Shown here piece after piece: positions 10,420 through 32,000 of a stretch of 32,000 nt of DNA. Origin of the DNA: Candidatus Brocadia sp. GTDB lineage: Bacteria > Planctomycetota > Brocadiia > Brocadiales > Brocadiaceae. The stretch lies in contig CP091279.1 of assembly GCA_021650915.1 (NCBI GenBank), positions 30,001 to 62,000 on the forward strand. Reading direction: 5' to 3'. A program made the position numbers and the translations under genes. How positions within the stretch are numbered: position 1 is the stretch's first letter; each line of letters begins with the position of its first letter. Under the pieces are notes generated by a model that had not been told where the DNA came from, did no database searches, and saw only the letters and a program-made list of their open reading frames with translations.

Positions 10420-12168
10420 CTATTGGAATTTCGTGTAGAGTTCCATGTGCCGGCTCAGATCATTTTGCCAGTCGGTCATGAAAGATTCTTGCTTTTCGTA
10501 TAAGTAACGTTGCGTTACCGCCTCTTTGTTTTTTTCAAACGCCGTTTTATCGGCAACCTTTTTATCAACCACCTGGATAATGTAGCATGCCTTTTCCCCG
10601 GCGGTTTCCACCGCAATTCCGCGCTGATCCGGCTTCAGTTCAAATCCCTTTTTCGCCACATTCGGCCGGTCTGCTTTGAGCGCTTCGATATATCGCGAGT
10701 CCTTATTAAAAAGCTTCATGGGACGGTTTAGGTAGTTTGTTTCACAAACCGGGACGTCTTTGAGTCCGACTTCAGTCTTCACAGCTTTCACCATGTCTTC
10801 GAAGACGGTTTTTGTGGAAGCTCCTGCGTATTTTTCAGCGATTTCCTTTGCCTTCAGAAGGCCCTTTTCGGCTCTGAGATCGCTGCTTACCCTGTCCCGG
10901 ATCTCTTCCAGAGGGGGCGCTGCCGCCGCCTTTTTGTCAGTGACCTGGAAAATAACCTTGCCTTCTACAAAATCGAGCGGAATGGAGGCCTCATGTTTAT
11001 CCCGGTCAAATGCAATCTGAACCAACTGGTCAGAACCCGGCAACACCTCGAACAGATCGTTTTCCGTGAGAAATTCGTCGTTCGATTTCTTGCTTTTTGG
11101 TATTTCATAAGCGACGTTATATTTCTGTGCCAGGTCTTTAAAGCCAGGGCGTTCGGCCTTGTCCATGGTTTCGTATATCTCTTCATCCAGTTTGTTCATA
11201 ATTTCAGCAGCCTTTGCCATGGCCTTTTGTCTGGCGAGTGTCTTTCGAATGTCTCCTTGTGCCTCGGCAAAGGTTTTGTATGTGGTAACGGTTTTTTGTT
11301 CCTGAGCCTTGTTTGCTGCAGACGACTCCTTCTCTTCCTTTTTCACGGTTTTCTTTTCTGCCGGAGATTCTTCTTTGACGGTAATCTTAAACTGTGTCTC
11401 TTTATTGTCTTCATAATATTTTTTCATTTCTTCATCGGCAACCGGCACGTGTTTCTCCATATCGGTGTATCGTGCAATGAGGCATTCCAGCTTTACCCGT
11501 TCAGGGAATTTATATCCGGGGTTTTCAGCATCTTCGCTGGCGGCGTTATCCTTGTGCTTTTCATAAAAGGAGCGGATTTCATCTTCCGTTATATAAACCG
11601 AATCCACAAAATCTTTCGCCTTTAAGGTAAGCACCTTGAGCTTTACCTGCTCGTTTTCCAGGGAATACCTCTGCCAGGCTTCGTCCGTAGTCATCTTTAC
11701 CGACATCCGGATCAACGAGTCCAGCTTCTCTACCAGGATAGCTTCACTCAGGGTGCGTGCTATCTGCTCCTGATTCAGCCTGAAATTCGCGCAGAGAAAA
11801 TGAAGGAGCCTTGTCCGGTCGAGATTCTCGTTTCCGCCAAATATCTGAAAGGCAAACCGTTGAAGCCCTTCGTCGATCTCCTGCATCGTTACCGTGAGTC
11901 CCATATGTCTTGCCTTTTCAACGTACATCAGCTGTTTCCAGACCAGCGAAACGATCGATTCATTTGCCTGAGGGAAGAATAATCTTTGCCACCGACTCAG
12001 CATCTCTGCAAATTCATTCTGCGTAATCTTCCGGCCAAATGCCCTTCCGATCGGTTTTTTCGGGATCATTTCCATCGCAGAATAACTAATGCCCCACACG
12101 CACATAGCAAAGATCATGACGATATAAACCGTCTTTTGATGCCTTCTGAACCAAGAACTCGAGACCAT
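10420..12168 (-). CDS. PpiD/SurA-like periplasmic chaperone / peptidyl-prolyl isomerase family protein
   Basis: It has an N-terminal membrane anchor (VYIVMIFAMCVWGISY), a SurA-N-like region and a long acidic/lysine-rich linker. The size is typical of PpiD-like proteins. Confidence 0.75.
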   Translation of the reverse strand: MVSSSWFRRHQKTVYIVMIFAMCVWGISYSAMEMIPKKPIGRAFGRKITQNEFAEMLSRWQRLFFPQANESIVSLVWKQLMYVEKARHMGLTVTMQEIDEGLQRFAFQIFGGNENLDRTRLLHFLCANFRLNQEQIARTLSEAILVEKLDSLIRMSVKMTTDEAWQRYSLENEQVKLKVLTLKAKDFVDSVYITEDEIRSFYEKHKDNAASEDAENPGYKFPERVKLECLIARYTDMEKHVPVADEEMKKYYEDNKETQFKITVKEESPAEKKTVKKEEKESSAANKAQEQKTVTTYKTFAEAQGDIRKTLARQKAMAKAAEIMNKLDEEIYETMDKAERPGFKDLAQKYNVAYEIPKSKKSNDEFLTENDLFEVLPGSDQLVQIAFDRDKHEASIPLDFVEGKVIFQVTDKKAAAAPPLEEIRDRVSSDLRAEKGLLKAKEIAEKYAGASTKTVFEDMVKAVKTEVGLKDVPVCETNYLNRPMKLFNKDSRYIEALKADRPNVAKKGFELKPDQRGIAVETAGEKACYIIQVVDKKVADKTAFEKNKEAVTQRYLYEKQESFMTDWQNDLSRHMELYTKFQ

Positions 12169-12348
12169 ATCTCCCTCTTAATTGAATTTATTACCCCGGT
12201 GACAATGAAAAAAATAAAATAAAGTTCCATTTTATATGCAAGAGTAATAATTATCAAATGGTTTTTTGTAATTTGTTTTTCGCCCCGTTCTGCAAAAACT
12301 ACCTTTTTACTTAAAATTAGAATTAATCGATTTTAGCGCAGAAATGTC

Positions 12349-12377
12349 TTGACACGATTTCCAAGCTCTGCTTAAAT
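12349..12377 (+). promoter_or_regulatory. Candidate sigma70-type promoter for topA
   Basis: TTGACA (12349-12354), a 17-nt spacer and TTAAAT (12372-12377) lie about 30 nt upstream of the topA ATG. Confidence 0.4.
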
Positions 12378-12408
12378 TTGCACTTTCAGGTTTTTGAGGT
12401 TTTTATAG

Positions 12409-14754
12409 ATGGCCAAAGCTAAGAAAAATATGGTAATTGTTGAATCCCCTGCCAAGGCGAAGACCATTGGGAAGTATCTCGGTTCGTCCTTCTTCGTCTG
12501 CTCATCAATGGGACACGTCCGCGACCTGCCCGAAAAAAAGTTGTCCGTCGACATCGAAAATAATTTTACTCCGGAATATAAGATCATCCCGAGCCGGAAA
12601 AAACTTATCTCAGAGTTGCTGGCTGGTGCAAAGAAGGCGGACGCGATCTACCTGGCATCCGATCTTGACCGCGAGGGAGAGGCGATTGCATGGCATTTGA
12701 CCCAGGCGCTGGGAATCCCTGACGAAAAGGCAAAGCGGGTTACGTTTAATGAAATTACAAAAGACGCCATTCTGGAAGCCTTTAATCACCCGAGTTCTAT
12801 CAATATGGCAAAGGTGAATGCCCAGCAGGCGCGGCGGATCCTCGACCGGATTGTTGGTTACCAGATAAGCCCCCTCTTATGGAAAAAAATCTCAAAAGGG
12901 CTCAGCGCTGGCCGGGTTCAGTCCGTGGCAGTCCGCCTTATTGTGGAGCGTGAAAGGGAAATCAGGGACTTCAAGCCACAAGAGTACTGGAAGATCACTG
13001 CCGAATTAAAAACGATTGCAGGGGAGAAGCCCGGGGATGCCAAAACCTTTAAGGCCATCCTGCAAAAGCTTAACAATGAAACTATTGAAATAAAGAATGA
13101 GCCACAAGCCACGGATATTGTCAGCGAACTTCAGAAGGCAGGGTATAGTGTCGCTAACGTAAAAAAACAAACGAAACGCAATAACGCCCCTCCGCCCTTT
13201 ACGACCAGTCTTTTGCAGCAGCAGGCATCCACCCGATTGCAGTTTACCGCCAAAAAAACGATGCTCATCGCCCAGCAGTTATATGAGGGAATTGATCTCG
13301 GCCGCGAGGGCGCCGTAGGGCTTATTACCTATATGAGAACGGATTCGTTTCACATATCGGAACAGGCGATAACGTCCTGCCGGAAGCTGATTGCAGAGAG
13401 CTATGGAAACAATTACCTTCCGGAAAAACCGAACCTGCATGCCTCGGATAAAAAAGGCACTCAGGGCGCTCACGAGGCCATCCGTCCTACGACGGTTGAA
13501 TACACACCTGAATCCATAAAGGACTCTTTAACGAAGGATCAATACAAACTGTATGAACTCATATGGAACCGGTTTATTGCCAGTCAGATGAAACCGGCGC
13601 TCTACGCAGTAACTGATGTTGAAATTGTGACGCAATCTGCAACAGACTCAGGAGATGACGCGAAGGCGCCTCCAAAGGAGTACCTGTTAAAAGCGAGAGG
13701 AAGGGAATTACTCTTCGATGGCCATACCCGTGTTTCAGGCCACGAAATGGAAAAGGATGAGCAGATACTCCCGACGCTGGAGAAAGACCAGAAGCTCGAA
13801 TTACTGGCGGTTGTGCCTACCCAGCACTTTACCCAGCCGCCTCCCCGTTTTTCCGAGGCGTCTCTCGTGAAAACCCTGGAGAAGATGGGAATAGGAAGGC
13901 CCAGCACCTACGCTGCAATTATCTCCACGATACAGGACCGGGGATACGTCAAGCAGGAGAAACGCGCCTTTTACGCGACGGAACTGGGGATACTGGTTAC
14001 CGAGAAACTCATTGAACATTTTGCAAAGATCATGGATGTAAAATTTACCTCGCACATGGAGGATGAACTGGACAAGATCGAAGATGAAAAGGTCGGGTGG
14101 CTGAAGGTGCTGAAGGAATTTTACGAACCGTTTAAAATTGATCTGGAAAAGGCGGTGGGAGAAATGAAAAGTGTCAAGGGCACTCCGGAAGAAAGCAACC
14201 AGAAATGCACCCTCTGCGGACAGCCAATGGTTATCCGGTGGGGGAGACACGGGAAATTTTTGGGCTGTTCGGGATTTCCCACCTGCAAAAGCACCCTTCC
14301 CCTCGATGAAAAAGGCGAGCCTTCTCCCCCGGAGACAACTGACCAGAAATGTGAAAAATGCGGGAGCGCCATGGTTGTGAAGACGAGCCGTCACGGGAAG
14401 TTTCTGGCGTGTTCTGCATACCCCACCTGCAAGAATACCAAGTCTCTTGGCGGCGAAACGACGAAAGTGGAGCCCACGGATGAAAAGTGTGAAAAATGTG
14501 GCAGCCCTATGGTGATCCGGTCCAGCAAGAGGGGCCGGTTTATGGGGTGTTCAGCCTATCCCAAATGCAGAAATCTCAAGTCACTTCCCACCGGAGTAAA
14601 ATGCCCGAATGAGGGTTGCGGGGGAGACCTCGTGCAACGGCGCTCAAAAAAGGGCGGGATATTTTTCGGGTGCAGCAAATATCCGGAATGTGATTATATA
14701 GCAAAAGAACTACCCGGTACTTCTGATGCCATAAAAGACGATAGCCCTGGTTAA
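12409..14754 (+). CDS. topA: DNA topoisomerase I with four C-terminal zinc-ribbon repeats
   Basis: A Toprim N-terminus (MVIVESPAKAKTIGKYLG) and the catalytic region GLITYMRTDS are present. There are four CxxC...CxxC fingers (CTLCG, CEKCG x2, CPNEGCG). Confidence 0.95.
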   Translation: MAKAKKNMVIVESPAKAKTIGKYLGSSFFVCSSMGHVRDLPEKKLSVDIENNFTPEYKIIPSRKKLISELLAGAKKADAIYLASDLDREGEAIAWHLTQALGIPDEKAKRVTFNEITKDAILEAFNHPSSINMAKVNAQQARRILDRIVGYQISPLLWKKISKGLSAGRVQSVAVRLIVEREREIRDFKPQEYWKITAELKTIAGEKPGDAKTFKAILQKLNNETIEIKNEPQATDIVSELQKAGYSVANVKKQTKRNNAPPPFTTSLLQQQASTRLQFTAKKTMLIAQQLYEGIDLGREGAVGLITYMRTDSFHISEQAITSCRKLIAESYGNNYLPEKPNLHASDKKGTQGAHEAIRPTTVEYTPESIKDSLTKDQYKLYELIWNRFIASQMKPALYAVTDVEIVTQSATDSGDDAKAPPKEYLLKARGRELLFDGHTRVSGHEMEKDEQILPTLEKDQKLELLAVVPTQHFTQPPPRFSEASLVKTLEKMGIGRPSTYAAIISTIQDRGYVKQEKRAFYATELGILVTEKLIEHFAKIMDVKFTSHMEDELDKIEDEKVGWLKVLKEFYEPFKIDLEKAVGEMKSVKGTPEESNQKCTLCGQPMVIRWGRHGKFLGCSGFPTCKSTLPLDEKGEPSPPETTDQKCEKCGSAMVVKTSRHGKFLACSAYPTCKNTKSLGGETTKVEPTDEKCEKCGSPMVIRSSKRGRFMGCSAYPKCRNLKSLPTGVKCPNEGCGGDLVQRRSKKGGIFFGCSKYPECDYIAKELPGTSDAIKDDSPG

Positions 14755-28176: not shown

Positions 28177-28444
28177 GTAACAATTTAGTTTTTTGAAAAA
28201 TCCCGAAGGGATGACATGATTATAGAAAAAGCGCGCCACCATATTTAACCCCGTAGGGGTGAAATATCGGGAAAATAGCGATACTATGTCACCCCTTACG
28301 GGGTTGACCATAATTGCATAACGATATGCTATAATCATGACATCCCTTCGGGATTAAAGAAGCGCTATTTTGTTCACCCGTAGTGATGGTGAGCGAAAGT
28401 ACACTGAATAAATACAAGAATTTTTCAAAAAGCTAAATTGTTAC
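28177..28444. mobile_element. MITE-like unit with GTAAC-type TIRs enclosing the 157-bp nested palindrome
   Basis: GTAACAATTTAGTTTTTTGAAAAA (28177-28200) is paired with TTTTTCAAAAAGCTAAATTGTTAC (28421-28444). Confidence 0.7.
28199..28355 (-). repeat. 157-bp nested-palindrome element, full copy
   Basis: The outer arms are AATCCCGAAGGGATGACATGATTATAG and CTATAATCATGACATCCCTTCGGGATT. The inner hairpins are AACCCCGTAGGGGTG and CACCCCTTACGGGGTTG. It is about 90 percent identical by eye to 30406-30563 in the opposite orientation. Confidence 0.8.
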
Positions 28445-28524
28445 GAATATTACGGTGTAAAAACTTCTTTTTTTGTAAGTTTTTGCGCAACCCGATGCAT
28501 CCTTTATCAGAAGGTACCGTTTGT

Positions 28525-28663
28525 GTAACAGTTTAGCTTTTTGAAAAACTCTCAATTTTATACCATATTTTGTTAAAAAATTGTATTATTAGAGCGATTT
28601 TTGGCCCTTTTTAAGCGATATTTCGACATTTTTTGGCAGTTTTTCAAAAAGCTAAATTGATAC
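28525..28663. mobile_element. MITE-like unit with GTAAC-type TIRs (139 bp)
   Basis: GTAACAGTTTAGCTTTTTGAAAAA (28525-) is paired with TTTTTCAAAAAGCTAAATTGATAC (-28663). Confidence 0.65.
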
Positions 28664-28682
28664 CCGTTTGTTTGTGAGAGAA

Positions 28683-28843
28683 GGATTGCTTCGCGGAGTT
28701 CACACTGAGCAAATCGAATGTGCTCGCAATGGTGACGTACCGTATGTCATCAAAGGCATAGCCCGTGTCATTGCGAGGGTCTTGTCCGAAGCAATCTCCC
28801 GCTTTCACAACGGAGAATTGGTTGCGGCCTTGCTGCGCTAGGG
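28683..28843 (+). repeat. Composite ~160-nt dispersed repeat (GATTGCTTCG..CTCGCAATG / GTCATTGCGAG..GAAGCAATC / TTGGTTGCGG..CTGCGCTAGG)
   Basis: It aligns with 29211-29339. In reverse orientation it aligns with 18447-18518 plus 20024-20165. Confidence 0.75.
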
Positions 28844-28861
28844 TAATTTTTCAAAAAATGA

Positions 28862-28965
28862 TACTCAAAAGGTTCACCATCAGTGAATATTTAGATTGAT
28901 AAACAGGGTGGCACGGACAAACTCTGTTTGTCCGTGTTGAACTTGCACGACGTTGTTTATAGTAT
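28862..28965 (+). repeat. Copy of the kdpF-type MITE (left arm and core; right end unclear)
   Basis: TACTCAAAAGGTTCACCATCAGTGAATATTTAGATTGATAAACAGGGTGGCACGGACAAACTCTGTTTGTCCGTGTTGAAC aligns with 6481-6560. Confidence 0.6.
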
Positions 28966-28990
28966 TACTGTATAAAAACTTCTTTTTTTG

Positions 28991-29141
28991 GTAACACTTT
29001 AGTTTTTTGAAAAATTACCATAATAACGATGTTGCCGCACGGTGTAAGGGCGAAGCATTTGCCATAAATTGGTATAAATGTATTCATGCCCCAAGATGGC
29101 AAATGCTTCGCCCCTACTTTTTCAAAAAACTAAAGTGTTAC
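28991..29141. mobile_element. MITE-like unit with GTAAC-type TIRs (151 bp) carrying the GCGAAGCATTTGCC palindrome
   Basis: GTAACACTTTAGTTTTTTGAAAAA (28991-) is paired with TTTTTCAAAAAACTAAAGTGTTAC (-29141). Confidence 0.7.
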
Positions 29142-29210
29142 TTTTTTTGTAAGTTTTTTTACAAACCCCTTTTCAGGAGGTACCATTTTTTATGAGTGAA
29201 GGATTGCTTC

Positions 29211-29339
29211 GCTTCGCTCGCAATGACCAACGTGTCGTGTGCCATCAAAGTGCATGGTCGGTGTCATTGCGAGGGCCTTTTCCGAAGCAATCTCCCCACT
29301 TTCATAAAGAAAATTTGGTTGCGGTTGTGCTGCGCTAGG
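29211..29339 (+). repeat. Second copy of the composite ~160-nt dispersed repeat
   Basis: It aligns with 28683-28843. Confidence 0.75.
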
Positions 29340-29384
29340 AAATATCTATTTTAAAAATTGGATAGACAAACCAGGTCTGATCAT

Positions 29385-29510
29385 TGCAAGCACAAGGTAT
29401 TGAGCAGTATTACAAAAACACGGACAAGCACAGCTTGTCCATGCCGCCCCTTTAGATTATGGTAAGTCTGTATCAAGTTTATAAATCACAAATTGTGCGC
29501 CTCTTGAGTA
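29385..29510 (-). repeat. Copy of the kdpF-type MITE (core and one arm)
   Basis: ACACGGACAAGCACAGCTTGTCCATGCCGCC is the core hairpin. ATAAATCACAAATTGTGCGCCTCTTGAGTA matches the arm at 6563-6593. Confidence 0.55.
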
Positions 29511-29600
29511 TAAAGTGCTTCAAACTTTTTATCAGGGTAGGATAACGGTCGTAACCTGCCTTTTCTTATCGTGGTAGCATGGTTTTTTGCAGTTTTGATG

Positions 29601-29895
29601 GGAGGTGAAAAATGTTTGAAGATAACGAAATTTCTCCTTTTGGCCGGAGGTATCTTCAGGCCTGGTGAAAAATCGGTGATTTCTGCACGTGATAAGTAAT
29701 TGTTTAACGGCCACTTATAAAATTGGAAATTGAGCGATGAGGAAAAAAGTTTGAAGATGGCATCTTGTCGGCGTTTGTGCAGGGTATCTTCAAGGTTTAT
29801 GAAAAATTTATCTTATGGATTGATCATTGGTTATGACTTTCAAGGTGGACAATTTCTGCAAAGTCGGGGGTGTGAAAATGGGGTATCTTCAAGGT
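29601..29895 (+). promoter_or_regulatory. Leader-like region with three repeated modules (GTGAAAAAT / GTTTGAAGAT ... GGTATCTTCA(A)GG)
   Basis: GGTATCTTCA(A)GG occurs at 29649, 29783 and 29882. Its inverse, GTTTGAAGAT, occurs at 29614 and 29749. G/TGAAAAAT occurs at 29605, 29665, 29799 and 29871. The role is unknown, and the region lies immediately upstream of the first CRISPR repeat. Confidence 0.35.
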
Positions 29896-29998
29896 TTTGC
29901 CAGAATAAGGCATAACGGTCTCTTGCTCTTGCAGTTAGAATGCATATCATGGTATATGCCGGAAGGGGGAAAAAGGCGTAACCCCCGATAAATGTGGC

Positions 29999-30310
29999 GT
30001 TCCCTGCTCTTTGAAGAGATGAAAGGGATTGAGAACAACAAAGTATCACCTATGTTATCATCCATCCAGTTTCCGGCGTTCCCTGCTCTTTGAAGAGATG
30101 AAAGGGATTGAGACGGTTTACCCAGATACAACCTGCACTCTCACCATACCAACCGTTTCGGTTCAATCGTGGACGATTGAACCAGCCTGGACGGGCAGCC
30201 CCAACCGCAGTTCCCTGCTCTTGGGAGAAATGAAAGGGATCGAGGCAGAGGTAGGGGCGTATTGCAATACGCTCCTACCAAAGTTTCCGGTTCTTGGGAA
30301 GAGTTGAGAC
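29999..30310 (+). CRISPR. Mini CRISPR array: 2 near-identical 37-nt repeats, 1 degenerate repeat, 1 internally deleted remnant
   Basis: R1 is at 29999-30035 and R2 at 30078-30114, both GTTCCCTGCTCTTTGAAGAGATGAAAGGGATTGAGAC, with R1 ending in A. R3 at 30210-30246 has 5 mismatches. The R4 remnant is GTTCTTGGGAAGAGTTGAGAC at 30290-30310. Spacers are 42, 95 and 43 nt. The strand is set by the ATTGAGAC 3' tail and by the degenerate repeats lying at the distal end. Confidence 0.8.
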
Positions 30311-30405: not shown

Positions 30406-30563
30406 AATCCCGAAGGGATGTCATGATTATAGCCTGTTGTTATGCAAGTATGGTGAACCCTGTAGGGGTGGTATAGTATCGCTATTTTCCCGATATTTCA
30501 CCCCTACGGGGCTAAATATGCTGGTGTGCTTTTTTCTATAATCATGACATCCCTTCGGGATTT
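30406..30563 (+). repeat. 157-bp nested-palindrome element, full copy, between the array and the RT
   Basis: It runs AATCCCGAAGGGATGTCATGATTATAG...CTATAATCATGACATCCCTTCGGGATT and aligns with 28199-28355 (reverse) and 20234-20363. Confidence 0.8.
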
Positions 30564-30593: not shown

Positions 30594-30792
30594 TGTTCTC
30601 CTTTATGTTCCCTGTCCGTTAAAAGATCCGAAACACGTAAAGGGTATTCTGCAGGGAATAGGCAAAAATGAAATAGGGCTGGAATTTCGCCTGGCCTATG
30701 GGTATGATAGACCGGATATAGCCTGTGGGGTTGGCATGGGATACAAAAAGACTGTTCCGGCGCTGGGCCTCATGAAAGAGCATGGAGGGGCC

Positions 30793-30834
30793 TGCTGCCT
30801 CTGAAGAGGCAGCATTCTCAACGTCTTCTTTTTT
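30793..30834 (+). terminator. Perfect 9-bp hairpin followed at a distance by a T-run; function uncertain
   Basis: TGCTGCCTC-TGAA-GAGGCAGCA spans 30793-30814. The T-rich tract TCTTCTTTTTT ends at 30834. The 12-nt gap between stem and T-run is atypical for an intrinsic terminator. Confidence 0.3.
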
Positions 30835-30852
30835 ACCGTCAGGAAGTGTGCG

Positions 30853-32000
30853 GTGGGTGAATATTTTGATGCCTTGTGCGAGCGCTCTGTCATGGATGCC
30901 GCATGCCGTCGCGTTATGAAGAAAAAGGCGCGGGGAGGCCTCGACGGGGTAGAAATTGATGATCAGCATACCGACGCAGACAAAATGGTCTCTGCCCTTA
31001 TCAAAGAGCTTCGTACGGGCGCGTATGTGCCGGTGCCGTACGCCAGGGGGGCAATACCGAAATTTGATGAACAGAATCAATGGCGTAAAATCTCATTGCC
31101 TTCGGTGCGGGACAAGGTCGTTCAGCAGGCATTTGTTGAGGCGCTGGGGCCGGTGTTCAACAAAACGTTCCTGGATTGCAGTTATGCCTATCGCGAGGGA
31201 AAAGGTCCCGTCAAGGCCATAAAACGGGTAGAGCACATCCTGCATACGCATCACATCCGGTGGGTGACGACCATGGATATCGACAATTTTTTTGACACCA
31301 TGGATCACGATATTTTCATCGGTGAGTTTACCAAAAAGGTTGCCGAACCGGAGATACTCCAGCTTGTGCGTCTCTGGCTCAAGGCCGGCTGTATCAGCGC
31401 CAGGGGTGACTGGATAGAACCGTATGACGGCATTGCGCAGGGGGCGGTTGTTTCCCCGCTTTTCTCCAATATATACCTTCACCCCCTCGACTGCTTTGCC
31501 ATCGGAAACAACTGCCTCTATGTGCGCTACAGCGACAATCTTATTGTTCTTTCTGAAACAAAAGAGACCTTGTACCTCTGGTACGAACAGCTAAAATCCT
31601 TCCTCGAAGACCGTCTCAGGCTCAGGCTGAACGAAGACCCGTATCCGTTTAAGGACAAAGAACGGGGGTTTGTCTTTTTAGGGATCTTTTTTCAGAACGA
31701 TGTGCGGCAGATAAGCACCGCGAAAGAAACAAACATCTGTCGCAGGATTAACTGGCTCACGGACAAAACGCAGCAAAAAGACCCGGAGATATTCTTGGAG
31801 AAATTCAACAAATGTATCGAAGGGGTGCAGCGATATTATTCCTGTATTGAGCCTCTCAGGCAGTTTGAGATTATTGACCAGCATATCCTGAAGCGTGTTC
31901 GGCCCCTGCTGGATCATTTTTATGAAAGGGGTTGTTTCCCGTCGCGTGACGATCTCAAATCATACATCATGAAGATTCGTTTTCTGGCGACTAAACCGGA
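30853..32000 (+). CDS. Group-II-intron-like reverse transcriptase adjacent to the CRISPR array (CRISPR-associated RT candidate); 3' end off-window; absent from the supplied ORF track
   Basis: I translated the frame with codon starts at 3n+1 by hand. It is open from 30805 to the window end. The motifs are RKISLPSVRDKVVQQA (RT1/2), TMDIDNFFDTMDH (RT3), GIAQGAVVSPLFSNIYLHPLD (RT4), YVRYSDNLIVL (RT5, YSDN in place of YxDD), FLGIFF (RT7) and a thumb-like IEGVQRYYSCIEPLRQF. The start is uncertain. GTG at 30853 lies upstream of the conserved FDALCERSV..A...V...KA.GGLDGV block, and the first ATG is at 30892. Confidence 0.85.
   Translation, partial: MGEYFDALCERSVMDAACRRVMKKKARGGLDGVEIDDQHTDADKMVSALIKELRTGAYVPVPYARGAIPKFDEQNQWRKISLPSVRDKVVQQAFVEALGPVFNKTFLDCSYAYREGKGPVKAIKRVEHILHTHHIRWVTTMDIDNFFDTMDHDIFIGEFTKKVAEPEILQLVRLWLKAGCISARGDWIEPYDGIAQGAVVSPLFSNIYLHPLDCFAIGNNCLYVRYSDNLIVLSETKETLYLWYEQLKSFLEDRLRLRLNEDPYPFKDKERGFVFLGIFFQNDVRQISTAKETNICRRINWLTDKTQQKDPEIFLEKFNKCIEGVQRYYSCIEPLRQFEIIDQHILKRVRPLLDHFYERGCFPSRDDLKSYIMKIRFLATKP

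Follow-up and report, generated by a model that had tools for sequence, protein, structure and literature searches.

A YSDN box in a Candidatus Brocadia RT-Cas1 protein appears to be one of two maintained motif-C states rather than a lesion

Does a reverse transcriptase (RT) that reads YSDN in place of the catalytic YxDD box, and that sits beside a worn CRISPR array, represent a dead enzyme in a dying locus or a natural variant of a working one? The question is raised by an RT gene at the end of a 32,000-nucleotide stretch of Candidatus Brocadia sp. (assembly GCA_021650915.1, contig CP091279.1, positions 30,001 to 62,000 of the forward strand), which we refer to in its full length as the window. 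YxDD is treated as a universal RT signature, its mutation is the standard "RT-dead" control for RT-Cas1 proteins, and its second aspartate is a ligand of the A-site (catalytic) metal. The original prediction for this DNA had read the exchange of that aspartate for asparagine as the mark of a polymerase-dead or altered enzyme, with the former fitting the decay of the surrounding locus, and had allowed for an assembly or sequencing error. Our comparisons indicate that YSDN is not a lesion, and that Asp and Asn appear to be two selectively maintained states of the second motif-C position in this lineage of RT-Cas1 proteins.

The motif itself was described correctly. In the RT frame, the four codons of motif 5 (motif C) read TAC AGC GAC AAT (Tyr227-Ser228-Asp229-Asn230; Table 1). 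The open reading frame (ORF) begins with GTG at 30853, has a ribosome-binding site (AGGAAG) 8 nucleotides before this start, and stays open across all 382 codons up to the end of the window at 32000. Pfam returned RVT_1 over residues 69-268 (E-value 6e-26) and, weakly, the maturase/thumb domain GIIM. When searched against the PDB with phmmer, residues 10-351 aligned with the GsI-IIC RT (6AR1; E 7e-37), and RT motifs 1-7 were all present in the correct order, in agreement with the original prediction that the other RT blocks are conserved. The R-Y-S-D-N of the query stood opposite R-Y-A-D-D in the GsI-IIC RT and in the intron RTs of E. rectale and R. intestinalis. The protein does not have the canonical YxDD box with two aspartates; it does have D143, D229, the steric-gate residue F148, the motif-B pair Q197-G198, and the fingers residues K71 and R79. 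An AlphaFold model built with 16 homologues (predicted local distance difference test 90.2, predicted template modelling score 0.87) showed the motif-C hairpin, with strands 223-227 and 230-235 and S228-D229 at the turn. The top Foldseek match of this model was again the GsI-IIC RT (6AR1; template modelling score 0.76).

To place the gene beyond the end of the window, metagenome contigs were scanned with a 32-nucleotide DNA pattern around the motif in which the critical codon was masked (NNN). The single contig returned, L090 (WBZY01002349.1), matches window positions 30605-32000 at 97% identity. Its ORF of 784 amino acids encodes the RT followed by a complete Cas1 domain (PF01867, E 1e-63) that keeps the Cas1 motifs FEGRIS, NYGYGILY, HISFLHAF and DLVEEYR. 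Directly downstream lies cas2 (91 amino acids; PF09827, E 1e-24), followed further on by housekeeping genes, and upstream are 19 perfect copies of the window's 37-nucleotide repeat with 18 unique spacers. On this domain content, we assign the window gene to the RT part of an RT-Cas1 fusion, its Cas1 part being deduced from L090, and hence to a known kind of system. The nearest database proteins (41-60% identity) include RT-Cas1 fusions with PF01867, and the genome loci L006 and L047 have the same architecture as L090. The best genome relative, L006, comes from an uncultured Syntrophorhabdus metagenome-assembled genome (54% identity), and the window protein is placed by its sequence in a Syntrophorhabdus/Thermodesulfobacteriota-type subclade.

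The close relative also bears on the reliability of the motif. L090 encodes the asparagine with AAC and the window with AAT, and because an independent assembly has Asn by a different codon, a base-call error at 31537 is disposed of. Over the 382 codons, the two sequences differ by 12 synonymous and 13 non-synonymous changes, and the ratio of non-synonymous to synonymous substitution rates (dN/dS), which the original prediction had proposed as a check, is 0.29. The RT region of this pair is under purifying selection.

Asparagine at this position is common among the relatives. We pooled 241 RT domains from 80 genome loci, the best 150 representatives drawn from 1.84 billion proteins, and our first search; the sample mixes genome loci with cluster representatives, and sequences of >95% identity were collapsed. 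The second motif-C position was Asp in 167 domains (hereafter D-type), Asn in 73 (N-type) and Lys in one. This sole relative with neither D nor N is a representative of 399 amino acids (P0124) that reads RYADKILL. Among the first 27 matches covering the motif (P0001-P0027), 19 had Y[SA]DN and six had Y[SA]DD. Matches at 41-60% identity had Y[SA]DN throughout, except for P0009 and P0015 (YSDD) and two fragments without the motif region. In 83 more distant matches, mostly RTs of group II intron type, DN was seen in one short fragment only. The YxDN clades for which the original prediction had suggested an alignment search do therefore exist.

A neighbour-joining tree of the RT domains, computed with the motif column removed, grouped the window protein with N-type sequences only, in a clade of 14 members (identity down to 40%), and recovered another such clade with 27 members (identity down to 28%). 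Asn has thus been retained through very deep divergence. The two states also alternate: P0009, P0015 and L008 have YSDD and lie at the edge of the window's subclade, and at least five N-type sequences (L015, L049, P0008, P0026, P0147) have a D-type nearest relative. Fitch parsimony on the tree gave about 22 D/N changes from a D root, which is an upper-range estimate. Each such change is a single G/A transition, and the Asn codons in 21 N-type genome loci were divided between AAC (11) and AAT (10). Since the alternative to Asp is limited to Asn, with which it is isosteric, the position does not behave as one that has lost its function. On these alignments, the D/N dimorphism is conserved and recurrent, with N in about 30% of the RT-Cas1 lineage. 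It appears to be undescribed, as we did not find it discussed in the searchable literature: queries for YSDN, YADN or YXDN with reverse transcriptase gave only irrelevant papers, and variation in motif 5 is not mentioned in Toro 2017, Toro 2018, Silas 2017 or a 2021 review.

If the asparagine marked a dying active site, its neighbours should show it. Thirteen residues (K71, D88, D143, F148, G194, Q197, P203, N207, Y209, D214, R226, Y227 and D229) were invariant in all 73 N-type sequences, and R79, Q92 and G198 were each present in 72 of the 73. D143 and F148 were also invariant in the D-type sequences (166/166). These columns show no relaxation of the active site among N-type proteins. The motif-6 Lys of group II intron RTs (LNxxK; column of residues 261-268) is absent from all 241 relatives. 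We considered its loss as a second lesion and rejected this, because it is equally missing in D-type members and is not linked to Asn. Some positions close to the active site do vary with the motif. Ala196, just before the QG of motif 4, was found in 44 of 70 N-type and 12 of 161 D-type sequences. Residue 231 also co-varies with N, being I or L in place of F. A search for charge-compensating residues gave its strongest associations at A196, L277C, S228 and residue 231; these are confounded by phylogeny and were left uninterpreted.

The loci that carry N-type genes give a similar picture. N-type ORFs are full length wherever the contig permits reading, with none found truncated there, and the type III loci around these RT-Cas1 genes are complete, their arrays having 9-31 repeats. 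L006 has the order cas10...card1-cas6-RT-Cas1 (778 amino acids)-cas2 with at least 11 repeats in its array; the complete genome L047 has cas2, an RT-Cas1 of 797 amino acids and 31 repeats; and L043, L072 and L082 have 30, 27 and 17 repeats, respectively. The type III effector module (cas10 and RAMP genes) is present in L001 and L006. Damage does occur. The RT of P0016 (L005, 9171-11779) is truncated at its 5' end, with its Cas1 and array intact and a Y1 (IS200-like) transposase ORF just upstream, and the Cas1 of P0003 stops after ~90 residues, 68 base pairs before the contig end (L001-L004, of 17 contigs carrying P0003). Despite these damaged relatives, N-type genes are as a rule full length. 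The window and L090 share no spacers (3 repeats vs. at least 19). Full spacer turnover at a synonymous divergence of 0.05 suggests recent adaptation in the YSDN lineage, whether or not the RT took part.

What, then, might an RT-Cas1 with YSDN do? Taking the comparative evidence together with the published biochemistry of Ty1 RT, we consider it probable that the protein still works as a polymerase, but with changed kinetics or a changed use of metals. The D211N mutant of Ty1 RT is a processive polymerase in vitro with a 223-fold lower kpol, an unchanged dissociation constant for deoxynucleoside triphosphates (dNTPs) and a preference for Mn2+; D211E, or changes at the other two aspartates, abolished activity, and a comparable tolerance is reported for Ty3 RT (PMC2148107). 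By analogy, the carbonyl oxygen of Asn230 would still help to position the catalytic metal with one negative charge fewer, and the enzyme would be expected to bind dNTPs normally, to catalyse more slowly and to favour Mn2+ over Mg2+. Such a slow polymerase could be enough to copy or tail RNA protospacers of 35-40 nucleotides for integration by Cas1-Cas2. What we infer for YSDN RT-Cas1 is residual catalysis, changed metal use or kinetics, and acquisition of RNA-derived spacers.

These arguments need to be read with several opposing points in mind. Retroviral RTs lose their activity when any one of the three aspartates is mutated, and Ty1 D211N does not support transposition despite its activity in vitro (PMC2148107). 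The dN/dS of 0.29 is based on just 25 differences, and the neighbour-joining tree is distance-based with weak deep nodes. The precedent of a native FGDN motif, in the RT-Cas1 of Eubacteriaceae bacterium CHKCI004 (see below), comes from one figure legend, and the preprint prints FGDD. Nor are populated arrays proof of an active RT, because DNA spacers can be integrated by Cas1-Cas2 in its absence.

It is possible, although in our view unlikely, that the YxDN RT domain has lost catalysis and persists in the Cas1-Cas2 integrase as a structural module that binds RNA or nucleotides, perhaps capturing RNA or DNA protospacers or holding the complex together while other enzymes carry out any synthesis of complementary DNA (cDNA). 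Such a pseudo-enzyme would agree with the metal-binding role of the second Asp and the loss of activity in mutated retroviral RTs, as well as with the failure of Ty1 D211N in vivo (PMC2148107); the long arrays beside N-type genes could all be DNA-derived, and the motif-6 Lys is missing too. A dead site should drift, yet 240 of the 241 relatives have D or N here, and the remaining catalytic and dNTP-binding residues are all invariant among the 73 N-type sequences, down to 28% identity. The motif-6 Lys, for its part, is absent from D-type proteins as well, including the lineage of the active P. muris enzyme, and the N-to-D reversals or repeated D-to-N changes (P0009, P0015, L008, L049, L015) are better explained by two functional states than by a loss in one direction. 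A change of chemistry would be another route to the same motif: the enzyme may perform Mn2+-dependent short 3' tailing, priming only, or synthesis with relaxed sugar selectivity instead of templated cDNA synthesis. Here the altered metal preference, pausing and pyrophosphate handling of Ty1 D211N (PMC2148107) can be cited, as can the short 3'-dN tails that M. mediterranea RT-Cas1 is reported to add to RNA protospacers (PMC11014452), and the co-variation of Ala196 and residue 231 with N. This co-variation is confounded by phylogeny, however, and with steric-gate Phe148 and the template/primer-binding motifs unchanged we regard such a switch as improbable.

That the Asn is a lesion private to this decaying locus, or an error of sequencing or assembly, is an explanation to which we give next to no credence. 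The window locus is certainly eroded (three repeats, one of them degenerate, two copies of a miniature inverted-repeat transposable element (MITE)-like element, insertion sequence (IS) elements, a group II intron RT and no effector remnants), yet Asn is present in all 14 members of the subclade and in 73 relatives in total, L090 has it by another codon, and the ORF is open over its 382 window codons with the dN/dS given above; the AAC codon of L090 and the 73 relatives refute this explanation. Regarding the original prediction, its "altered enzyme" is therefore viable, and its polymerase-dead enzyme explained by decay is unsupported, given an Asn that is fixed in the subclade, the restriction to D or N, the invariant active site, the intact N-type loci and the purifying selection. 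A well-populated and conserved YxDN clade with demonstrated activity had been named there as counter-evidence; the clade exists, and its precedents for activity are indirect only (Ty1 D211N and the ambiguous FGDN).

Because about three in ten members of one large RT-Cas1 lineage are naturally YxDN with the rest of the site frozen, such proteins should not be annotated as inactive. The dimorphism may bear on how much catalytic power the acquisition of RNA spacers needs, and YxDN enzymes might have properties that are useful for RNA-recording tools. As a tentative thought, the D and N states may be alternative adaptive settings, the latter slow and Mn2+-dependent or tailing-only, or else a pocket for RNA capture only, with a second mode toggled by a G/A transition. 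In either case, there would be a second biochemical mode of RT-linked CRISPR adaptation, as yet uncharacterised.

The remainder of the CRISPR locus (Table 1) is where decay can be seen. Both the adjacency of an array to the RT and the decay around it had been anticipated in the original prediction; the erosion is real but independent of the YSDN motif. The mini-array lies ~600 base pairs upstream of the RT start and has spacers of 42 and 95 nucleotides. The longer one (30115-30209), compared with spacers of 33-43 nucleotides in L090, may represent two spacers with a lost repeat, or an insertion. Motifs similar to those of the leader-like region, AAGTTTGAA(G/T)AT and ATATTCAAACTTTT, occur in the array leader of L005 (about 12000-12700), and motifs of this type may form a conserved leader element for spacer integration. 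The window's cas6 shares 48-53% identity with its counterparts ahead of RT-Cas1 in L001 and L006. The place upstream of cas6 that holds the type III effector genes in these relatives is taken up in the window by transposases of the IS110, IS66 and ISAs1 families together with a group II intron RT, and tblastn with the effector proteins of L001 and L006 found no remnants in the window. The ISAs1-family protein has a DruA-like N-terminal region. No Rfam family, and thus no intron RNA, was matched anywhere in the window, and the second RT is probably part of a truncated or degenerate intron.

Table 1 Coordinates of the RT-Cas1 gene, its motifs and the neighbouring CRISPR-related and mobile features in the window.
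Feature	Position	Strand	Remarks
IS110-, IS66- and ISAs1-family transposase cluster, upstream of cas6	18658-19668; 21584-23005; 23414-24781	+; +; -	
Second RT, group II intron RT/maturase	24840-25892	-	YADD; 350 amino acids; TIGR04416, 392 bits
cas6, CRISPR RNA-processing endoribonuclease	27062-28030	+	322 amino acids; PF10040, E 1e-18
Leader-like region upstream of array (putative leader role)	29560-29998	+	Repeated GTTTGAAGAT / ATCTTCAAGG motifs; repeat family D5
CRISPR mini-array	29999-30246	+	Two near-perfect 37-nucleotide repeats (GTTCCCTGCTCTTTGAAGAGATGAAAGGGATTGAGAC), one degenerate with 5 mismatches
RT-Cas1 fusion gene, 5' part	30853-32000	+	382 codons; fingers, palm and thumb-like domains of the RT
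Motif 3 (motif A) catalytic Asp143	31276-31278	+	In DIDNFFD, followed by steric-gate Phe148
Motif 5 (motif C) box Y227-S228-D229-N230	31528-31539	+	YSDN replacing YxDD; TAC AGC GAC AAT
Asn230 codon, at site of second catalytic Asp	31537-31539	+	AAT; AAC in L090

Repeated DNA surrounds the array. A 157-base-pair MITE-like element is present in two copies (28199-28355 and 30406-30562) that flank the mini-array, with terminal inverted repeats AATCCCGAAGGGATG.CATGATTATAG ... CTATAATCATGACATCCCTTCGGGATT. It had no match in the upstream sequence of L090, and the homology with L090 begins at window position 30605, downstream of the second copy. A non-coding block of ~500 base pairs is duplicated between cas6 and the array (28421-28940 and 28953-29440; 74-96% identity) and includes the repeat families D2, D4, D7, D8, D9 and D14. 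A search with the Cas6 protein for contigs that could extend the window yielded 23, all of them short. One of these, L086, has a 100% identical cas6 and matches the window at 99.8% up to position 28845 (L086 position 2975), within repeat-rich DNA, and continues past that position with unrelated genes (HMA_2, P-type ATPase). The break may be either a chimeric assembly through the repeats or a real rearrangement in another strain.

Compared with known systems, the window RT has its best sequence and fold matches among group II intron RT/maturases such as the GsI-IIC RT (6AR1), with which it shares the motif order and the thumb/X domain. It differs from them in its Cas1 fusion, its YSDN box and the missing motif-6 Lys, and we rejected a mobile group II intron RT/maturase since the score for TIGR04416 (240 bits) is below the cutoff of 300 and no Rfam intron was found. 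Among CRISPR-associated proteins, the type VI-A/RT2 RT-Cas1 of Eubacteriaceae bacterium CHKCI004 (WP_090127495.1) is likewise an RT-Cas1 and differs from the window's in its RT clade (12) and its type I-B-like Cas1. It has RT activity on poly(rA)/oligo(dT), and an FGAA mutant cut spacer acquisition 6-fold (PMC11662929). This mutant is given as FGDN->FGAA in the published Fig. 1 legend (PMC11662929) and as FGDD->FGAA in the preprint (bioRxiv 10.1101/2024.03.12.584598). With legend and preprint in disagreement on the native motif of WP_090127495.1, FGDN is an ambiguous precedent.

Among described systems, the closest appear to be the Bacteroidetes "clade 2" RT-Cas1 proteins, as suggested by the searches and by the grouping in our tree. 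Clade 2/2B (branch 9 of Silas; type III and VI-B) includes P. barnesiae and P. muris. The RT of Phocaeicola (Bacteroides) barnesiae DSM 18169 (L066) was placed in clade 2B by Toro et al. (PMC6013744), and Xylanibacter (Prevotella) muris (L036; YADD) is apparently the "P. muris" of published work, whose RT-Cas1 is RT-active and acquires RNA-derived spacers (PMC11662929). Both loci were retrieved by the same profile and pattern searches as the window's relatives, and fall with the window RT in one radiation of a neighbour-joining tree from which other CRISPR-RT clades were left out. Clade 2 proteins and the window lineage have in common a group II intron-like RT fused N-terminally to Cas1, adjacent cas2, cas6 and CRISPR array, DIDNFFD as motif A, no motif-6 Lys, and a length of ~760-800 amino acids. 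The window protein is 31-35% identical to those of P. barnesiae and P. muris, with YSDN vs. their YADD.

For the asparagine itself, the nearest parallels lie outside CRISPR systems. In the L polymerases of the Mononegavirales, motif C reads GDNQ, a variant of GDD that is active and with which two metal ions are still bound (PMC5648267). GDNQ shares with YSDN a natural Asp-to-Asn change at the second acidic residue of motif C in a right-hand polymerase fold, but belongs to a very distant RNA-dependent RNA polymerase in which Asn is fixed across the order, whereas in RT-Cas1 it alternates with Asp. Ty1 D211N has the same substitution at the same catalytic position as the window RT; there it was engineered into a eukaryotic RT of a long terminal repeat retrotransposon, whereas in RT-Cas1 it is natural and appears to be under selection.

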